Assembly (NCBI GenBank): GCA_023245895.1 | Contig: JAHFJJ010000005.1 | Coordinates: forward strand, 1-53,479 | Length of the DNA: 53,479 nucleotides | Direction of reading: 5' to 3' | Source: Candidatus Doudnabacteria bacterium | Lineage (GTDB): Bacteria; Patescibacteriota; Doudnabacteria; UBA920 | Part shown: piece after piece, positions 9,708 to 48,306 of the stretch | Layout: the number at the start of each line of letters is the position of its first letter | Position numbering within the stretch: position 1 is the first letter of the stretch | Made by a program: the position numbers and the translations under genes | Notes under the pieces: generated by a model | What the model was told of the DNA's origin: nothing | Database searches by the model: none | The model's input: only the letters and a program-made list of their open reading frames with translations

Positions 9708-10118
9708 CTACCTTATCTGCAGTATATTTTGGACAATGGCAACTATGCTAAAGGACATTAGGGCAAAGACCAGGCCTAAAATTGCCCAGGTTATGGTTTT
9801 TTTAGCCTTGACTATGGTTTCTTCACTGCCCGCGGCCATAACCATTTGGAAGCCGCCCACTATAATAAATATCACAGACCAAATCCCCACAATGCCCAGA
9901 AGGGATTTTATAATTAGTAAAAAGGTCTGGGTCAGCTCTTGTGATGGTATGGGGTTAATAAGGCATTGTTTGGGGTCGGTGCAGGGGGCGGGTGGGGTGG
10001 GAGTCGCGTCCGCGTAAGTTTTATAAGCCCCAAAGGCAAAAGTTCCTACCAGGAACAAACTTAGTATAAAGCCTGTTTTTAGTGATTTTGCTATTTTGCC
10101 AAAGGTTTTTTGTTTCAT
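9708..10118 (-). CDS. TrbC/VirB2-like (type IV secretion-type) pilin family small membrane protein
   Basis: 136 aa. Signal/anchor helix, Pro/Thr-rich segment with a Cys pair (PTPPAPCTDPKQC), then two TM helices around a GGFQMVMAAGSEE loop. This architecture is typical of the small T4SS-pilin-like proteins abundant in CPR genomes. Assigned by eye only. Confidence 0.65.
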   Translation of the reverse strand: MKQKTFGKIAKSLKTGFILSLFLVGTFAFGAYKTYADATPTPPAPCTDPKQCLINPIPSQELTQTFLLIIKSLLGIVGIWSVIFIIVGGFQMVMAAGSEETIVKAKKTITWAILGLVFALMSFSIVAIVQNILQIR

Positions 10119-14394: not shown

Positions 14395-14841
14395 ATGCGT
14401 TGCCCCAATTGTCAGAACGAAGACACCAAAGTGCTGGATAGCAGGCCAATAGACGAAGGCACGGCTATTAGGCGAAGAAGGGAATGCGAAAAGTGCGACT
14501 TTCGTTTTAGCACGTACGAAGAAATAGAAATCCTGGATTTGACGGTTATTAAGAAAGACGGCAAGCGGGAAATGTTTTCTAAGGAAAAGCTGGAGCGGGC
14601 TATTAGGCTGCCCATGGAAAAAAGGCCGCATACGGACGACACCCTAAGGAAACTGCTTTCTGCCATAGAAATAGAAATCCAGAAGAAGGCCAAGGACAGC
14701 CAAATTACCAGCGCGGAAATAGGGGATATAGTCATGAAGAAAATCAAGAAGGTAGACAAGGTAGCTTACGTCCGCTTCGCCGCTGTGTACAGGGAGTTTG
14801 AGGATGTGGACGAGTTTAAGGAAGAATTAAAGAAATTATAG
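14395..14841 (+). CDS. nrdR: transcriptional repressor NrdR
   Basis: Zinc ribbon MRCPNCQ...CEKC followed by an ATP-cone. 148 aa, typical length and sequence. Confidence 0.95.
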   Translation: MRCPNCQNEDTKVLDSRPIDEGTAIRRRRECEKCDFRFSTYEEIEILDLTVIKKDGKREMFSKEKLERAIRLPMEKRPHTDDTLRKLLSAIEIEIQKKAKDSQITSAEIGDIVMKKIKKVDKVAYVRFAAVYREFEDVDEFKEELKKL

Positions 14842-14919
14842 TGAATAGAGAATAGTGCTTAGAGAATAGGAGAAGATACATATTTTATCCTAACGCACTA
14901 TTCACTAAGCACTAATTAC
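14841..14919. repeat. word-like inverted repeat, family F7 (GTGAATAG / AGTGCTTAG words)
   Basis: GTGAATAGAGAATAGTGCTTAGAGAATAGG pairs with CCTAACGCACTATTCACTAAGCACTAATTAC. A single arm recurs after groEL (32851-32883). Confidence 0.65.
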
Positions 14920-14945
14920 TAAAATAGAATTAACTAAGAACTTAT

Positions 14946-31171: not shown

Positions 31172-32848
31172 ATGAGCAAAATTATCAAATATGGTTTAGA
31201 AGCCAAGCAGGCTATTAAAGCCGGCGTGGACAAAGCCGCGGACGTGGTTAAAGTTACTTTGGGCCCCACAGGGCGGACGGTTATTTTGGATAAAGGCTAC
31301 GGCTCTCCATCTATAACAGATGACGGTGTTACCGTGGCCAAGGACATTGAACTTGAAGACAAATTTGAAAACGTGGGCGCGTCTTTAATCCAGGAAGTGG
31401 CCAATAAAACTAATGACGCGGCTGGCGACGGGACCACCACGGCTACGGTTTTGGCGCAAAAAATGATAGAAGACGGTTTTGAAATGTTAAAGCGCAACCC
31501 TTACAAAGCCAATGACATGAAGCGCGGCATGGACAAGGCCGTAAAATTTGTTGTCGCGGAACTTAACAAAGTTAAAAAAGAAGTTAAAGGCAAAGAAGGC
31601 ATTGAGCAGGTTGCGACTATCTCATCGCTCGACCCGGAAGTCGGAAAACTGATTGCAGAAGCCATGGAAGAAGTCGGCCACGACGGCGTTATTACAGTAG
31701 AAGAAGGCCAGACCGTGGGCTTACAAAAAGAAGTCGTAAAAGGTATGCGCTTTGATAAAGGCTTTGTTTCGCCGTATATGGTAACTAACGCCGAAAGAAT
31801 GGAAGCAGTTTGGGAAGACCCGTATATCCTCATCACCGACAAAAAAGTTTCATCTGTCCAGGAAATTTTACCTTTGCTTGAAAAGGTGGCCCAAAGCGGC
31901 AAAAAAGAAATTGTCATTATTGCCGATGAAGTGGAAGGTGAAGCCTTAACTACATTTATTTTAAATAAACTGCGCGGCACCTTTAGCGTGCTGGCGGTTA
32001 AAGCCCCGGGTTTTGGCGACAGGCGCAAGGAAATGCTGCAGGATATTGCGGTCTTAACCGGCGGCACGGTAATTACGGAAGACTTGGGCTTGAAGCTGGA
32101 TAAAACCGAAGTTGAACATTTGGGCAAGGCGCGCAAAGTTATTGCCACCAAAGAAAATACCACTATTGTGGACGGCCATGGCGACAAAAAGAAAATTGAG
32201 GACAGAGTAAACCAAATTAAAGCCGAACACAAAGAATCTACATCGGATTTTGACAAAGAGAAACTCCAGGAACGCATGGCCCGTTTGGCCGGCGGCGTAG
32301 GCGTAATTAAGGTTGGCGCTTTTACGGAAACCGAAATGAAAGCCAAGAAGTTTAAGATTGAGGACGCTTTAAATGCCACGCGCGCGGCAGTTGAAGAAGG
32401 CATTGTAATTGGCGGCGGCGCGGCTTTGGCAAAAATTGCGCCTTTGCTTGAGCAGGCGGTTTCGCAGGGAAATCATTTTTCCGAAAACGAAAAATTAGGC
32501 GCCATGATAATCCGTAAAGCTTTAGAAGCTCCCTTAAGGCAGATTGCCGAGAATACCGGCGTTGAACCATCAGGAATCGTAAGTTATGTCCAGTCTTCCG
32601 GCGAGCATGAAGGCTATGACTTTATGGACTTTGACGAAATGAACTGGGCCAAGGGCAAAAAAGATTTAATGAAGGCTGGCATTGTAGACCCGGTTAAAGT
32701 TACCAGGCTTGCTTTGGAAAACGCGGTATCAATTGCCTCCACTTTAGTTACAAGTGAAGCCATAGTCGTAGACAAACCGGAACCGAAATCCGAAGCTCCT
32801 GCCGGCGGCATGCCCGGTGGAATGGGCGGCATGGGGGGGATGTATTAG
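31172..32848 (+). CDS. groEL: chaperonin GroEL
   Basis: 558 aa with [12 protein letters not shown] and a C-terminal [14 protein letters not shown] tail. Confidence 0.97.
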
Positions 32849-32892
32849 GACTAGTGAATAGTGCTTAGTGCATAGAGAATAGGAAAAGACAA

Positions 32893-32918
32893 AAGCCTCG
32901 TTTAAAGCGGGGCTTTTT
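32893..32918 (+). terminator. intrinsic terminator after groEL
   Basis: Stem AAGCCTCG / CGGGGCTT (one G-U pair) with a 7-nt loop, followed by TTTTT. Confidence 0.75.
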
Positions 32919-32982
32919 GATTAGCTGGTAAAATTTTTTGCTCATAAATAAGACAAAAATAGGACATATTGGCTAAATAGGC

Positions 32983-33011
32983 TTGACAAAAGGGTCATTT
33001 TAGAGTATACT
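32983..33011 (+). promoter_or_regulatory. near-consensus sigma70 promoter with no ORF behind it
   Basis: TTGACA at 32983-32988, exactly 17 nt, and TATACT at 33006-33011. The next CDS start is 930 nt downstream. Confidence 0.65.
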
Positions 33012-33017
33012 GTCTAG

Positions 33018-33506
33018 TTACGCTAAATCCTCCTCCGCTAAAGCTGCTGCGGACAAGAAAGGCGTACATCTTTAAAAATCCAATAATCTATATGTTTTTG
33101 CAGGAGAACATACGGATATCGCCCTTACATCAATCTTCACCAAGTTGATTGCAGAATAAAATTTTCACATCATACAGATATTTTAGAGAATCATTTATCC
33201 TAGGACTACTTTGATGGAGATTGATGTAAGGACGCTTATGCTCCTAATTTCGTTAACCCGGATTGGGGGCGCTAATGAGCCCGTTTCAAAAATTCATTTC
33301 GGCTGCAATTCTAAAATTTTGGCTGCAAAACCTTCATAGAAGCTCACCGATGCGCAAGGCATCGCCTCGCTTCTCTTCAGGTTTTTCGCTCAAAATTTTA
33401 GAATTTCGCTACGAAAGCAATTTATGAAACGGACTCTTAAAAAAGCCGTATACTCCACAAGAATATTTTTACTAACGTTCTTAAGTGTTTGAGTTTACGG
33501 TTTTTT
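33018..33506 (+). ncRNA. candidate orphan structured ncRNA (or first part of a very long leader)
   Basis: There is no ORF of 60 aa or more on either strand across 32849-33908, and no SD+ATG by eye. The predicted TSS is ~33018. Structures: a long-range stem 33123-33136/33218-33231 (14 bp perfect), a ~160-nt extended hairpin (33277-33436), and a terminator-like hairpin CCGTATACTC/GAGTTTACGG plus T6 (33446-33506). It matches no RNase P, tmRNA, SRP or 6S motifs known to me. Confidence 0.35.
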
Positions 33507-33942
33507 AATTCACATTAATTAAATTATTAATAGTGAATTAATCCGCCGAAGCTTTAGCGAAGGCGGATGTTAAATATATCGAATCTGCGAATGGGACGAA
33601 TCAACGAATGGCTACGAATGCAGACAGAAGATTGCTTATACAGTCGTGAGGCTTAGGAGGGTAAAACTTTATAGACATCTGATGATGTCGTGACCCGCAT
33701 CTCTAAGACTCACTATTGTGGAAGTAATTAGCTAGTAGTAGGTAGTATGTAGCAAGAATTAAGGCAAGGAGTATGGCGGCAAAATAGTTATCTAGGTTGT
33801 CGCCAAACTCCTTCTCTTAAAAAATTAATACTCTGAGGGCCTTAGGCCCTTTTTGTTTTGGGGACTTAAGGCCTTCAGAGTAGGCACGGGCACTTTGAAA
33901 AAAGTGCAGTGATTTATTTTGAGAGGAGGTTAAGGAGGGTAG

Positions 33943-34548
33943 ATGGAGGATTCGACGATAGACAATCAGAAAGAAAATACGAAAGAGCTTCGGCCTTTTT
34001 TTGTTTTGAGCGGCACGGGGCTAAGGTCTTTCCATGTCGACGTTACACGATTGATATCCAGGCAACTTCTTGTGGAAGTTGTATTGCCTGGGCTCATGGA
34101 TGAGGCGCAGGCGATGCTTGACAACGAACGGCGTGCAAGAGAGGCTGCGGAAGAAGAAGTCCGGGGTCTGGGCAGGTTTGTGAAACGTTTTGAGCTTATG
34201 GCGTCTCAGATGCTTTACTCTGGACGGGATTCCTCAAGGCGTGCAGACAGAGTCCGGGCAATTACACTTGTACAAGCTGGAGACCCCAAGGTTCCGGACG
34301 ACCAGATTGTGTTCTTTTTCCCTCGGGGGGAGAAGCCTCAGGTTGCCGCTCCGGTGCCCGCTAAAGCGGCGTCAAAACGGCGGGGAAGAAAGGGCAAGCG
34401 CAAGTGCGGCGTGTGCCAGAGCGCAGAACACGACGCGCGCAACTGCCCGACTAAGCCTTCACCGGCTCCGGAACCGCCAGCGGAAAAACGCGCGGTCAAG
34501 AAATCCGCGAACGCGAAGAAGAAACCGGGACGCAAAAAAAAGAAGTAG
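33943..34548 (+). CDS. CCHC zinc-knuckle protein with a Lys/Arg-rich tail (201 aa)
   Basis: AAGGAGG (33932-33938) lies 4 nt before the ATG. CGVCQSAEHDARNC matches C-x2-C-x4-H-x4-C (nt 34405-34446) and uses all three Cys of the protein. It is flanked by KRRGRKGKRK and KKKPGRKKKK. Confidence 0.8.
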   Translation: MEDSTIDNQKENTKELRPFFVLSGTGLRSFHVDVTRLISRQLLVEVVLPGLMDEAQAMLDNERRAREAAEEEVRGLGRFVKRFELMASQMLYSGRDSSRRADRVRAITLVQAGDPKVPDDQIVFFFPRGEKPQVAAPVPAKAASKRRGRKGKRKCGVCQSAEHDARNCPTKPSPAPEPPAEKRAVKKSANAKKKPGRKKKK

Positions 34549-46257: not shown

Positions 46258-46293
46258 AGAAAGACCCTAAAATTAGACGATTTATTGAGCCTT

Positions 46294-48306
46294 ATGGATA
46301 ATAATATTGAACAGCTGGCCAAGCTTATCCGCTACTATATACTAACCTCCACAACCGCGGCCGGGAGCGGACATCCGTCTTCTTCTTTGTCGGCAACCGA
46401 CTTAATGGCGGTTTTAATGTTTGGTAGAAAACAGAAGAACACGGAAACGGGCGCAACGGATGAACACGGAAAGGAAGCATTTTTTCGGACGGATTTGGAG
46501 AATCACGATAATTTGAATAACGACCGTTTGATTTTTAGCAAAGGCCATGCTTCGCCTTTGTTTTATGCTTTGTACGCGGCGTCTGGTCAGCGGCCCTCCT
46601 TCGCCAAGGCTGCGGCGGGCGAGTCGGCTGAATCATCGGCGGAATTAAAACGCGCACTCGAGCCAGAAGAACTATTAACTTTACGAAAGTTTGATAGCCG
46701 ACTGGAAGGCCATCCGACTTTGGAGTTTCCTTTTACGGAAGTGCCGACCGGGTCTTTGGGTCAGGGTTTGTCCGTGGGTTTGGGTATGGCTTTAAATGCC
46801 AGGCTGGATGGGTTGTTATATCGCACTTTTGTATTGCTGGGCGATTCTGAAATGGCCGAGGGTAGCGTGTGGGAAGCTATGGCTTGTGCGTCATTTTACA
46901 AATTGAATAATTTATTCGCGATTTTAGACTGTAACCGTTTGGGTCAAAGAGGGGAGACTATGTACGGCCACCATACGGAAGTTTATGAAGCCAGGGCTAA
47001 GGCGTTTGGATGGGAGACGGTGGTGGTGGATGGACATGATTTGGGGCAAATACAATCAGCATTTGAAGCTGTCACTAACCCTCACCCCGGCCCTCTCCCA
47101 GGGGGAGAGGGAGGAAAACCCACGATGATTATTGCCAAAACTTTAAAGGGCAAGGGTGTTTCGTTTATGGAAGACAAGGATGGCTGGCATGGCAAGGCCA
47201 TGAACCAGGAAGAGTTAAAAAAGGCTTTGGAAGAGTTGGGGGAGGTTGATAAGAGTATCATCGGGGAAGTTGCAAAACCCTCACCTGTCTCGACAGCCCT
47301 CGAGACATCCTCTCCCAAAGGGAGAGGATGGGAGCCAAATTTCACCGATTATTCATCCGGCAAGCCAGTTTCCACGCGCAAGGCGTATGGTAACGCTTTA
47401 GCTAATTTGGTGGATGCTAATAATCAAGTTGTAGTTTTGGACGCGGAAACCAGTAATTCAACTTTTGCCGATAGTGTTAAGAAAACCCATCCCGAGAGGT
47501 TTTTTGAAATGTATATCGCGGAGCAGAATATGGTGGGAGCGGCTTTGGGTTTTTCACGGAGGGGAAAAGTGTCTTTTGTTTCCACTTTTGCCGCATTCTT
47601 TTCACGGGCGTTCGATCAAATCCGTATGTCCCAATACGCCAAGGCCAACATTAAATTCGTCGGCTCCCATGCCGGCGTTTCCATTGGCGAAGACGGGGCT
47701 TCGCAAATGGGCCTTGAAGAAATAGCCATGTTTAGGACGCTTTTGGATTCTGTTGTGCTATATCCCTCCGATGCCATCTCCACGGAAAAATTAGTGGCCG
47801 AAGCGGCTAAACATTTTGGAAATGTTTATATTCAGACTACGCGGAAGGACACCGCGATTCTATATACATCAACTGACGAATTTTCCATCGGCGGCTCCAA
47901 AACTTTAAAATCATCTGCAAACGATGTCGCGACCGTCATTGGCGCAGGCATAACCGTCCACGAAGCTTTGGCGGCTTACGAAGAATTGCAAAAAGAGGGA
48001 GTTAACATCCGCGTAGTAGATTTATACAGTGTAAAGCCGCTTGATGTTGAAACTTTATTAAAGGCCGCAAGAGAGACTAAAGCCATTATCACGGTTGAAG
48101 ATGCTTATCCTGAAGGCGGAATTGGCGAAGCAGTTAAAGGAGCGCTAAGTGCTTCCACCTTCGCTGAAGCTTCGGCGGACAAGAAGTGCCTAGTGCTAAG
48201 CCTTGCTGTTAAAAAAATGCCCAAGAGCGGCAAGCCGGAGGAACTTTTAGCTTTTGAGGAAATAGATAAAAATGCTATTATAAAGCAAATTAAACAATTA
48301 GCTTAA
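46294..48306 (+). CDS. tkt: transketolase (fused N- and C-terminal halves) with several repeat-derived in-frame inserts
   Basis: GSGHPSSSLS, GDSEMAEGSVWEA, the GHD...KPTMIIAKTLKGKG region, and C-terminal pyrimidine-binding and TKC domains. ATG 46294 is preferred over TTG 46285. Confidence 0.92.
   Translation: MDNNIEQLAKLIRYYILTSTTAAGSGHPSSSLSATDLMAVLMFGRKQKNTETGATDEHGKEAFFRTDLENHDNLNNDRLIFSKGHASPLFYALYAASGQRPSFAKAAAGESAESSAELKRALEPEELLTLRKFDSRLEGHPTLEFPFTEVPTGSLGQGLSVGLGMALNARLDGLLYRTFVLLGDSEMAEGSVWEAMACASFYKLNNLFAILDCNRLGQRGETMYGHHTEVYEARAKAFGWETVVVDGHDLGQIQSAFEAVTNPHPGPLPGGEGGKPTMIIAKTLKGKGVSFMEDKDGWHGKAMNQEELKKALEELGEVDKSIIGEVAKPSPVSTALETSSPKGRGWEPNFTDYSSGKPVSTRKAYGNALANLVDANNQVVVLDAETSNSTFADSVKKTHPERFFEMYIAEQNMVGAALGFSRRGKVSFVSTFAAFFSRAFDQIRMSQYAKANIKFVGSHAGVSIGEDGASQMGLEEIAMFRTLLDSVVLYPSDAISTEKLVAEAAKHFGNVYIQTTRKDTAILYTSTDEFSIGGSKTLKSSANDVATVIGAGITVHEALAAYEELQKEGVNIRVVDLYSVKPLDVETLLKAARETKAIITVEDAYPEGGIGEAVKGALSASTFAEASADKKCLVLSLAVKKMPKSGKPEELLAFEEIDKNAIIKQIKQLA
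47077..47111. repeat. family F3 repeat inserted in frame in tkt
   Basis: It starts on a codon boundary (783 nt from the ATG) and encodes NPHPGPLPGGEG. A variant double hairpin at 47286-47330 encodes part of the inter-domain linker (STALETSSPKGRGW). Confidence 0.9.

Follow-up and report, generated by a model that had tools for sequence, protein, structure and literature searches.

A gene-free region downstream of groEL

The window analyzed here is a stretch of 53,479 nucleotides (nt), positions 1 to 53,479 of contig JAHFJJ010000005.1, which comes from a groundwater metagenome and is assigned to Candidatus Doudnabacteria. Its GroEL is 76 to 80% identical to the GroEL of metagenome-assembled genomes (MAGs) labeled Candidatus Doudnabacteria or Patescibacteria group. 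From the stop codon of groEL (position 32848) to the ATG (33943) of a putative zinc-knuckle open reading frame (ORF) of 201 amino acids (aa), 1.09 kb of DNA is gene free; in it we describe a candidate noncoding RNA (ncRNA) gene that we call RNA-A. All features are on the plus strand unless stated otherwise. The initial annotation of this DNA had reported the region to be ORF free, and there is indeed no ORF of at least 60 aa on either strand of 32849 to 33942; the longest ones, of 54 aa (33263 to 33427) and 42 aa (33211 to 33339), both have TTG starts. After groEL, an inverted repeat at 32891 to 32918 forms a predicted intrinsic groEL terminator, consisting of the hairpin AAAAGCCTCGTTT/AAGCGGGGCTTTT and a T run, and relatives have an equivalent hairpin at this place.

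We computed folding z-scores against dinucleotide shuffles. Positions 33018 to 33575 fold at −194.1 kcal/mol, compared with −115.7 ± 5.8 kcal/mol in the shuffles (z = −13.5), and the z-score of 33570 to 33945 is −8.7. Independent contigs of the source sequencing runs match 33238 to 34100 with zero differences; therefore, this stretch is not an assembly artifact.

RNA-A is a candidate RNA gene with a predicted promoter and terminator

RNA-A occupies about 33016 to 33506 and is supported by a conserved promoter and terminator, its single copy, and its strand preference. The transcript is predicted to begin at about 33016 to 33017 and to end with a U6 tract, for a length of about 490 nt, or about 325 nt without an inserted element. 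Upstream, the predicted sigma-70-type promoter at 32983 to 33011 (TTGACA, 17 nt, TATACT) agrees with the consensus at 11 of 12 positions, which bears out its earlier description as near consensus. RNA-A shows two features expected of an independently transcribed small-RNA gene, a predicted promoter of its own upstream and an intrinsic terminator of its own. About 40 nt upstream of the −35 element there is also a conserved box (32942 to 32964), which reads ATAAATAAGACAA in the window and TTTAAATAAGCCA in relatives; this box may bind a regulator or act as an UP-like element.

The conserved core of RNA-A is a 3′ domain of about 110 nt that consists of two hairpins, P3 and P4. P3 (33240 to 33270) is invariant in sequence, GCUCCURAU(N)YCG-loop-CGRWUUGGGGGC, with two fixed U-G pairs, one bulge, and a variable loop. 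Owing to the two U-G pairs and to a position that is U-G, U-A, or C-G, P3 makes a good helix on the plus strand only. It hardly varies, so covariation is uninformative for P3 in either direction. P4 (33441 to 33506) is a predicted intrinsic terminator hairpin with an A tract, a stem at 33445 to 33500, and U6 at 33501 to 33506, as the initial annotation had recognized in calling it a terminator-like hairpin with T6. The base of P4 is G+C rich, its apical part is conserved as AAGAAU-AUUUUUACUAAC-GUUCUU, and in all 50 distinct sequences the stem is followed by U5 to U8. Subclades with wholly different outer stems still share the apical stem of P4 and its A/U-rich loop (AUAUUUUUACUAA), which makes P4 more than a terminator. 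The linker between P3 and P4 is A rich and is short (GGGGGCGCAAAAAAGCCG) in L004 and most other relatives (L numbers designate relatives, which are GTDB species genomes and metagenome contig loci).

The 5′ domain is made of the hairpins P0, P1, and P2. It is conserved in only one subclade, of large-type members, to which the window belongs; in short-type members (L006, L008, L084, L112, and L131) only about 20 to 30 nt precede P3, and across the family the length of this domain ranges from about 20 to about 400 nt. P0, the 5′-terminal hairpin (33019 to 33066), has a UACGCU/AGCGUA-type stem in the minimum-free-energy folds of the window and relatives. P1 (33086 to 33117) has a conserved apex, GUUUUU-RCAG-GAGAAC, above a covarying lower stem and is formed by all of about 18 different relative sequences. 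P2 (33120 to 33234) is a long irregular hairpin, an inverted repeat with the conserved base CCCUUACAUCAAUCUUC/GGAGAUUGAUGUAAGG. Its stem, 33120 to 33160 with 33194 to 33234, contains the 14-bp perfect stem noticed previously.

Compensatory changes in these helices exceed those in controls, as expected for a structured RNA, and the covariation that the initial annotation had proposed looking for was found in P1, P2, and P4. For P1, 86% of cells are paired among 17 aligned sequences and 6 pairs changed on both sides; its covariation score was reached by 3 of 500 shuffles. The basal 17 bp of P2 compensate freely, with the pairing CCCUUACAUC/GAUGUAAGGA in the window and CCCCCACGCC/GGUGUGGGGG, UCUUCACACU/CGCGUGAAGA, or UUCUAGCGCU/UAGCGCUAGA in relatives. 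Many positions of P4 have three to five pair types in the covariance-model alignment, in which 97% of cells are paired. All 50 distinct 3′-domain sequences fold as exactly P3 and P4, and every one of them is more stable on the plus strand, by a mean of 9 kcal/mol.

In many relatives, ACAGGAGAA is complementary to UUCUCCUGU, which would suit a P1-P4 pseudoknot or antiterminator. We rejected this candidate; the pairing is absent from the window, L108, and L125, and UUCUCCUGU is present in L133, the 5′ region of which lacks the P1 motif. We leave it as an unexplained complementarity.

RNA-A is single copy and syntenic in related genomes

Among the seven closest GTDB genomes (GroEL identity of at least 76%), six (L001 to L004, L006, and L008) carry, after groEL and on its strand, a P3 hairpin whose stems are identical. 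Scanning metagenome contigs from soil, peat, groundwater, and freshwater for the exact P3 pattern yielded an additional 53 loci, or 52 without L132, which is likely a chance match. P3 and P4 are thus found in about 58 related loci, with one copy each, between groEL and (rpmF-)nusB, and all loci with enough flanking DNA have the order groES-groEL-RNA-(rpmF)-nusB-HU on one strand. A covariance model of P3 and P4 (R2) matches each locus once, has no second match in the 53-kb window, and finds nothing in the groEL loci of more distant Patescibacteria. The initial annotation had reasoned that a genuine RNA should have an alignable counterpart in relatives, and P3 and P4 are alignable, syntenic, and single copy across the roughly 58 loci.

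The promoter is conserved as well. Essentially every related locus with enough upstream DNA has a TTGACA-16/19-TAnnnT promoter 26 to 414 nt upstream of P3, and in the subclade of the window even the spacer is conserved (TTGACAAAAGGGyGGTTTTGGyGTATACT), as is the box upstream of the −35 element.

A mobile hairpin interrupts the P3-P4 linker

The extended hairpin of about 160 nt that had been noted at 33277 to 33436 is present, but within a palindromic element (33276 to 33437) that adds 162 bases to the P3-P4 linker and resembles a miniature inverted-repeat transposable element (MITE). The element has the terminal inverted repeats GAGCCCGTTTCA.../...TGAAACGGACTC and no coding capacity, and it is flanked by TAA at 33273 to 33275 and at 33438 to 33440, with a 1-nt offset. 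The site is empty in L004 and most other relatives. A contig of a freshwater run (X7) joins 33274 directly to 33442, and a contig of source run X1 belongs to a relative with an empty site. Two relatives, L110 and L123, have a shortened version of about 40 nt at the window's site.

The family comprises eight copies in six loci, at unrelated sites. Three near-identical copies in L004 (2177 to 2334, 3382 to 3542, and 7648 to 7808), with the terminal inverted repeats GAGGCTGTCTAAAAACTC.../...GAGTTTTTAGACCACCTC, are bounded by exact 3-bp duplications (ATT, ATC, and AAT). Others lie in a Falkowbacteria locus (L010, 7254 to 7411), in L100 at 9804 to 9961, 2.2 kb downstream, and, one copy each, inside P2 of RNA-A in L091 and L114. 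In the older copies (L010 and L100) the target duplication is unclear. All eight are oriented alike with respect to the genes around them, and in every copy the hairpin is 2 to 20 kcal/mol more stable on the minus (noncoding) strand. The copies also carry internal repeated words (GGCTGCAA/TTTCGC) that are conserved between the Doudnabacteria-like and Falkowbacteria versions.

Terminal inverted repeats without coding sequence, target duplication, dispersed copies, and empty sites are hallmarks of a MITE. Judging from these, the 160-nt hairpin is a MITE-like insertion that lies outside the conserved RNA. No partner transposase was identified; full-length elements with matching ends were not searched for. 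RNA-A evidently tolerates hairpin insertions in its loops and linkers.

Structured modules B and C lie beyond P4

Directly after the U tract of P4 there is an AT-rich hairpin (33505 to 33541), an inverted repeat that had been seen previously. Homologous hairpins stand directly 3′ of P4 in L095, L092, L125, L099, and L105. Farther downstream are two conserved structured modules, B and C.

Module B (33640 to 33721) is an irregular hairpin of about 82 nt, ACAAUCGUGGGCCUUAGGAGGGCAAAAyAUUUU-hairpin-GGCCU...CUUAGACCCACAAUUGUG. Its covariance model (R1) matches the window once, at 75 bits, and 22 related loci have a single copy apiece, in every case 3′ of RNA-A and on its strand. In the alignment, 92% of cells are paired, compared with 74% in shuffles and 30 to 47% in slid controls; 13 of 20 pairs changed on both sides, and none of 500 shuffles reached the covariation score. 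Module C (33757 to 33822), a hairpin of about 66 nt that is rich in G-U pairs, has the core UUGGCGG...GUUAUC...CGCCAA and accounts for the hairpins previously reported near 33765 to 33817, present here as a hairpin at 33759 to 33820. Its model (R3) matches the window once (73.5 bits) and has one copy in each of 11 relatives. Here too 92% of cells are paired (75% in shuffles), with 16 of 27 pairs changed on both sides and a score matched by none of 500 shuffles. In most members module C is much more stable on the plus strand.

A second putative terminator, T2 (33829 to 33882), follows. It consists of a hairpin at 33835 to 33851 with UUUUUGUUUU, nested in a long enclosing hairpin (33829 to 33849 with 33862 to 33882) with which it competes. 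The element described as attenuator-like in the initial annotation is therefore present, as an inverted repeat around a terminator-like hairpin and T run. A terminator also follows B/C in L095, L091, L114, L100, and L110.

The gap between P4 and module B bears on how B and C are transcribed. In L100 and L130 this gap is 12 nt, too short for B and C to have their own promoter. Most simply, B and C would be a 3′ extension of transcripts that read through P4. We considered a module B promoter inside P4 (TTGAGT-17-CATAAT, in L130 and L100) and discarded it, as the covarying outer stem of B covers the putative −10 element.

Downstream of module C in L100, L120, L126, L091, L003, and L101, we observed hairpins of the form CCyUCCAAAUUUG...CAGGUUUGGAGG before small genes, mostly for membrane proteins. 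These hairpins pair an anti-Shine-Dalgarno-like stretch with the Shine-Dalgarno sequence, a design that resembles P3. A regex search of the window gave no match to this motif.

Repeat words occur in and around RNA-A

The region also holds copies of a GC-rich palindromic word that is similar to repetitive extragenic palindromes (REPs). One copy, TCCGCCGAAGCTTTAGCGAAGGCGGA, lies at 33542 to 33567, where the initial annotation had placed it, and follows the AT-rich hairpin as it does in L095, L092, and L125. A degenerate copy at about 33027 to 33058 sits in the P0 loop. This is the "F5" word that had been reported at 33037 to 33068; the two are copies of one REP-like palindrome. L100 has the same kind of insertion in its P0 loop, and other relatives have a plain P0. 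Copies are found at varied places in L095, L111, L100, L125, and L092.

The two copies account for a 27-nt long-range inverted repeat, 33027 to 33053 with 33542 to 33568, that had been missed earlier. We considered whether it might be the closing stem of a 540-nt RNA. Since the repeat is two opposite copies of the word, which occupies varied sites in relatives, we ruled out a closing stem. One further copy, TCCGCCGAAGCTTCAGCGAAGGTGGA, occurs on the minus strand at 48154 to 48179, inside a 673-aa ORF (46285 to 48306), and may be either an in-frame repeat insertion or a chance resemblance.

Arrays of short words form another class of repeat. The five CGAAT words noted previously begin at 33580, 33588, 33597, 33605, and 33615 (array, 33580 to 33619; spacing of 8 to 10 nt), and they are homologous to half of a longer, palindromic array that L095 has at this place, where CGAAT words come first and ATTCG words second. 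Different words stand at equivalent places of other relatives (CGCTGA, ACAAAT, CTACAG, and CAGATA). In unrelated freshwater metagenomes, CGAAT arrays are plentiful and their flanking sequences are diverse. A TAGTG/ATAGAG array directly after the groEL stop codon (32852 to 32885), outside the RNA gene, recurs as a palindromic array at 14841 to 14925 of the window. In such arrays, short words are repeated every 8 to 11 nt and are often followed by the inverted array, which makes long "beaded" hairpins.

RNA-A is neither a coding region nor a known RNA

A conserved small-protein ORF would speak against an RNA gene, as the initial annotation had pointed out, and we found none. The 42- and 54-aa ORFs lie in P2 or the inserted element, which is absent from relatives, and they are without conservation. 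An AUG at the 5′ edge of P3 was rejected as a start codon; members have GGG, CUG, UUG, UCG, UAG, or ACG instead, and no Shine-Dalgarno sequence precedes this AUG. The length of the P3 loop differs by single nucleotides between members, so any reading frame across P3 is broken.

We scanned Rfam 15 at the gathering score and at E values up to 10. Over the whole window, the only match at the gathering score was a tRNA, and over the region the search at E values up to 10 returned only far-subthreshold microRNA and small-RNA noise. Twenty relatives gave only tRNAs and SAM riboswitches elsewhere, and minimal and consensus-like members were negative as well. RNA-A thus matches no Rfam 15 family. The families that had been singled out for checking (ROOL, GOLLD, OLE, HEARO, and raiA), as well as 6S, signal recognition particle (SRP), RNase P, and transfer-messenger RNA (tmRNA), were all without a match at the gathering score. 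ARAGORN found no tmRNA, standard or permuted, and only a tRNA-Gly elsewhere in the window. By eye, we saw no SRP domain IV motif, no defining motifs of 6S RNA, and no conserved regions of RNase P RNA. The earlier statement that motifs of RNase P, tmRNA, SRP, and 6S RNA are lacking agrees with these results.

The top 5 bp of P3 (GCUCC/GGGGC, with U-G as the third pair) presumably equal the first five acceptor-stem pairs of tRNA-Ala and tmRNA in permuted order, which we treat as a lead and not a test. A two-piece tmRNA was rejected because there is no T arm before the GCUCC/GGGGC helix and no conserved tag reading frame; in short-type members, only about 20 nt lie upstream of the helix. In the literature on ncRNAs of Patescibacteria or Doudnabacteria, we found no description of RNA-A or of similar RNAs.

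The gene that follows the region is variable

Before the zinc-knuckle ORF, 33890 to 33942 holds a small hairpin (33890 to 33907) and the Shine-Dalgarno region (GAGAGGAGG...GGAGGG). The Pfam match that gives the ORF its name is weak (zf-CCHC, E = 0.0033) and below the curated cutoff, and none of the other RNA-A loci has a detectable homologue of the gene. Among 39 loci, the first downstream ORF falls into 32 clusters. In compact relatives, rpmF follows P4 with its own consensus promoter, TTGACA-N18-TAAAAT.

The start of the zinc-knuckle ORF (33943 to 33975) contains GGAUUCGACG, which we take to be a 10-mer typical of the 5′ part of tmRNA. The resemblance is probably due to chance, as ARAGORN and Rfam place no tmRNA there. 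SAM-I riboswitches lie beside a tRNA a few kilobases downstream of the RNA locus in L083 (9508 to 9613) and L111 (4766 to 4869); the window has none.

Contigs of a wetland metatranscriptome cover parts of related loci

In a wetland metatranscriptome, contigs cover P3-P4 and module B of close relatives. The P3-P4 contigs match L091 at 1699 to 1803 with two mismatches and extend 42 nt past the U tract. The depth of the P3-P4 and module B contigs, about 4 to 5, is similar to that of the relatives' groEL fragments in the same run. These contigs are weakly compatible with expression and some read-through. In peat metatranscriptomes, we found nothing beyond groEL fragments that belong to other organisms and a single match of 37 nt to the module C core. 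The contigs in question, from peat runs X11 and X12 (depth of about 12 to 17), have these 37 nt in common with L114 at 1910 to 1946 and differ on both flanks. Given the different flanks, other expressed RNAs may contain the UUGGCGG...GUUAUC...CGCC core.

Interpretation of the locus

Taken together, the region is probably a conserved noncoding RNA locus of a Doudnabacteria-like lineage of the Patescibacteria, in which RNA-A would have a promoter and a terminator of its own. Comparison with relatives gives good support for transcription of RNA-A from promoter to terminator. In the mechanism that we propose, the strong sigma-70-type promoter at 32983 to 33011 would drive RNA-A, and the transcript would fold into the 5′ domain (P0, P1, and P2), the invariant P3, and P4. 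The A tract, G+C-rich base, and U6 of P4 would bring about intrinsic termination and free the RNA. In this genome, the MITE-like insertion in the P3-P4 linker adds about 160 nt and the P0 loop carries the REP-like word. Read-through of P4 would continue into the AT-rich hairpin, repeat debris, B, and C, as far as T2. We infer that RNA-A is an abundant trans-acting RNA, probably protein bound. The invariant P3 helix combines a bulge and two fixed U-G pairs with sequence conservation on both strands and a loop that is free to vary; it would be recognized specifically, most likely by a protein. Promoter, invariant helix, and the fixed place between groEL and rpmF-nusB have been kept despite 20 to 30% GroEL divergence, which implies an important role.

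Several observations weigh against this interpretation. Because the metagenome loci were found by the P3 pattern, the search itself accounts for part of the P3 invariance; the only loci unbiased for P3 are the six GroEL-anchored genomes. Positions 33018 to 33575 fold slightly better on the minus strand, because the inserted element is more stable there, and folding energy leaves the strand of module B undecided (minus strand more stable in 9 of 19). We recognized no promoter between P4 and module B, and in L100 and L130 only 12 nt separate module B from the U tract. B and C would therefore require read-through of P4, by all appearances a strong terminator. In metatranscriptomes from the source groundwater study the organism has no coverage, groEL included, and the wetland contigs are unstranded and of low depth, with DNA carry-over possible.

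The initial annotation had offered a novel ncRNA of about 0.5 kb as one reading of the region. The conserved promoter, P0 to P4, and terminator bear this out, but about one-third of the length is a mobile insertion, the P3-P4 core of about 110 nt had not been singled out, and the 5′ domain is kept in one subclade. We also weighed a larger RNA, in which RNA-A, the AT-rich hairpin, B, and C are domains of a single molecule, P4 is structural or a partial terminator, and T2 is the true end. Its length would be about 0.85 kb in the window (from 33016 to about 33858), compared with 0.5 to 0.6 kb in compact relatives, which would make it a large structured RNA specific to Patescibacteria in the size class of OLE, ROOL, and GOLLD. 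The co-occurrence of B and C with large-type RNA-A in constant order and strand fits such a molecule, as do the lack of promoter room before B in L100 and L130, the conserved hairpin directly 3′ of P4, the terminators after B/C in several relatives, the 42-nt extension of the wetland contig, and the plus-strand preference of module C. However, all 50 variants of P4 show the full set of features of an efficient intrinsic terminator, and the spacer between P4 and B is made of variable repeats, 10 to 230 nt long. No covariation between A and B/C was seen, though none was sought. Moreover, many members consist of RNA-A alone, followed at once by the rpmF promoter, and therefore A works without B and C. 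We regard a single multidomain RNA as possible but doubtful. Less probable again, and frankly speculative, is the idea that A, B, and C make up one abundant Patescibacteria-specific ribonucleoprotein RNA of 0.5 to 0.85 kb, with the acceptor-stem-like P3 binding a protein related to translation or RNA processing.

A very long leader had also been suggested earlier. In this reading, the whole region would regulate, as a 5′ leader, the zinc-knuckle ORF and the small genes that follow, and P4 and T2 would be attenuators overridden by a factor or ligand. Such a leader would account for the lack of a recognized sigma-70-like promoter in 33507 to 33942, for the attenuator-like nesting of T2 in a competing long hairpin, and for all genes here being on the same strand. 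Yet a leader or riboswitch should serve a single downstream family, and here the next gene belongs to 32 clusters in 39 loci and the zinc-knuckle gene is without detectable homologues in the other loci. RNA-A ends in a strong terminator and is kept even where rpmF has its own consensus promoter, and no conserved pairing disrupts P4 as an antiterminator would, the ACAGGAGAA/UUCUCCUGU complementarity being absent from the window, L108, and L125. We consider a leader unlikely, but in this particular genome some transcripts may continue into the zinc-knuckle gene, for which no promoter was recognized in 33507 to 33942. P3 could instead be a nut-like site, with its 5′ strand GCUCCUAAUUU as a BoxA-like sequence that loads NusB/NusE for read-through of P4 and T2 or for rpmF-nusB autoregulation. 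nusB is always downstream on the same strand, about 380 to 420 nt after P3 in compact loci, and BoxA-dependent autoregulation of Nus factor genes is known in gammaproteobacteria (PMC5725501). The gammaproteobacterial BoxA consensus is GYTCTTTAANA, and a C4T/T6C double mutant loses Nus factor recruitment (PMC5725501). The P3 strand fits this consensus, which may not be that of the host, at only 6 of 11 positions, with position 5 among the mismatches; the candidate BoxA is base paired inside P3, and rpmF has its own promoter after P4. A nut-like site is very unlikely on these grounds. Finally, the region might be a nonfunctional spacer filled with MITEs, REP-like words, and arrays, its foldability being their sum. 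This "graveyard" of repeats, as it had been called, is real in part. It includes the MITE-like 160-nt hairpin, the two "F5"/REP-like words that make the 27-nt inverted repeat, and the CGAAT array of a widespread class, and both strands of 33018 to 33575 fold about equally well. P3 and P4, B, and C, on the other hand, are single copy and syntenic and not dispersed, the promoter is conserved, the helices covary, and G-U pairs give P3/P4 and C a clear plus-strand preference. Since conservation is single copy and syntenic, repeats fail as the complete explanation, and a mere spacer seems most improbable of all.

If RNA-A, B, and C did form one large ribonucleoprotein RNA, a new class would be added to the short list of large bacterial ncRNAs, and it would sit in an ultra-small, host-dependent lineage with reduced genomes. 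Patescibacteria (candidate phyla radiation) have tiny genomes with little noncoding DNA, and seemingly few lineage-specific RNAs have been described for them. For RNA-A as an RNA gene with its own promoter and terminator, the results provide RNA databases with a new family of about 58 members with covariance models, a candidate RNA-protein partnership, and two more structured modules. An essential-looking RNA gene that absorbs mobile hairpins is comparable to the expansion segments of rRNA. It is also a warning for structure-based RNA discovery, as one-third of the "structure" here is transposon.

Comparison with known elements and RNAs

Like the Correia elements of Neisseria, RUP of Streptococcus, and ERIC/IRU of enterobacteria, the inserted element is noncoding and small (about 160 bp), forms a long hairpin, and has terminal inverted repeats. 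It also shares with them short duplications of the target, multiple intergenic copies per genome that are nearly identical and lie at unrelated places, and insertions within transcription units. We know of no sequence relation to them. Its duplication is 3 bp and A/T rich, it is common to Doudnabacteria-like genomes and Falkowbacteria, its orientation is uniform, and its noncoding strand is the more stable one.

Like 6S RNA, 4.5S/SRP RNA, tmRNA, and RNase P RNA, RNA-A is single copy, with a consensus promoter, a terminator, and an invariant helix that suggests a protein partner. It differs from them in having no Rfam match, T arm, tag frame, or end-to-end closing stem. From the raiA motif RNA, OLE, ROOL, and GOLLD it is set apart by the absence of a sequence or structure match (cmscan), a core of only about 110 nt, a variable 5′ domain, an end at a classical intrinsic terminator, and its Patescibacteria host. 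As in those RNAs, the function of RNA-A is not evident from sequence. Like them, it is independently conserved, highly structured, noncoding, and covarying, and it belongs to one lineage and a fixed gene neighborhood. If A, B, and C are one transcript, its size of 0.5 to 0.85 kb would also fall in the range of OLE, ROOL, and GOLLD.

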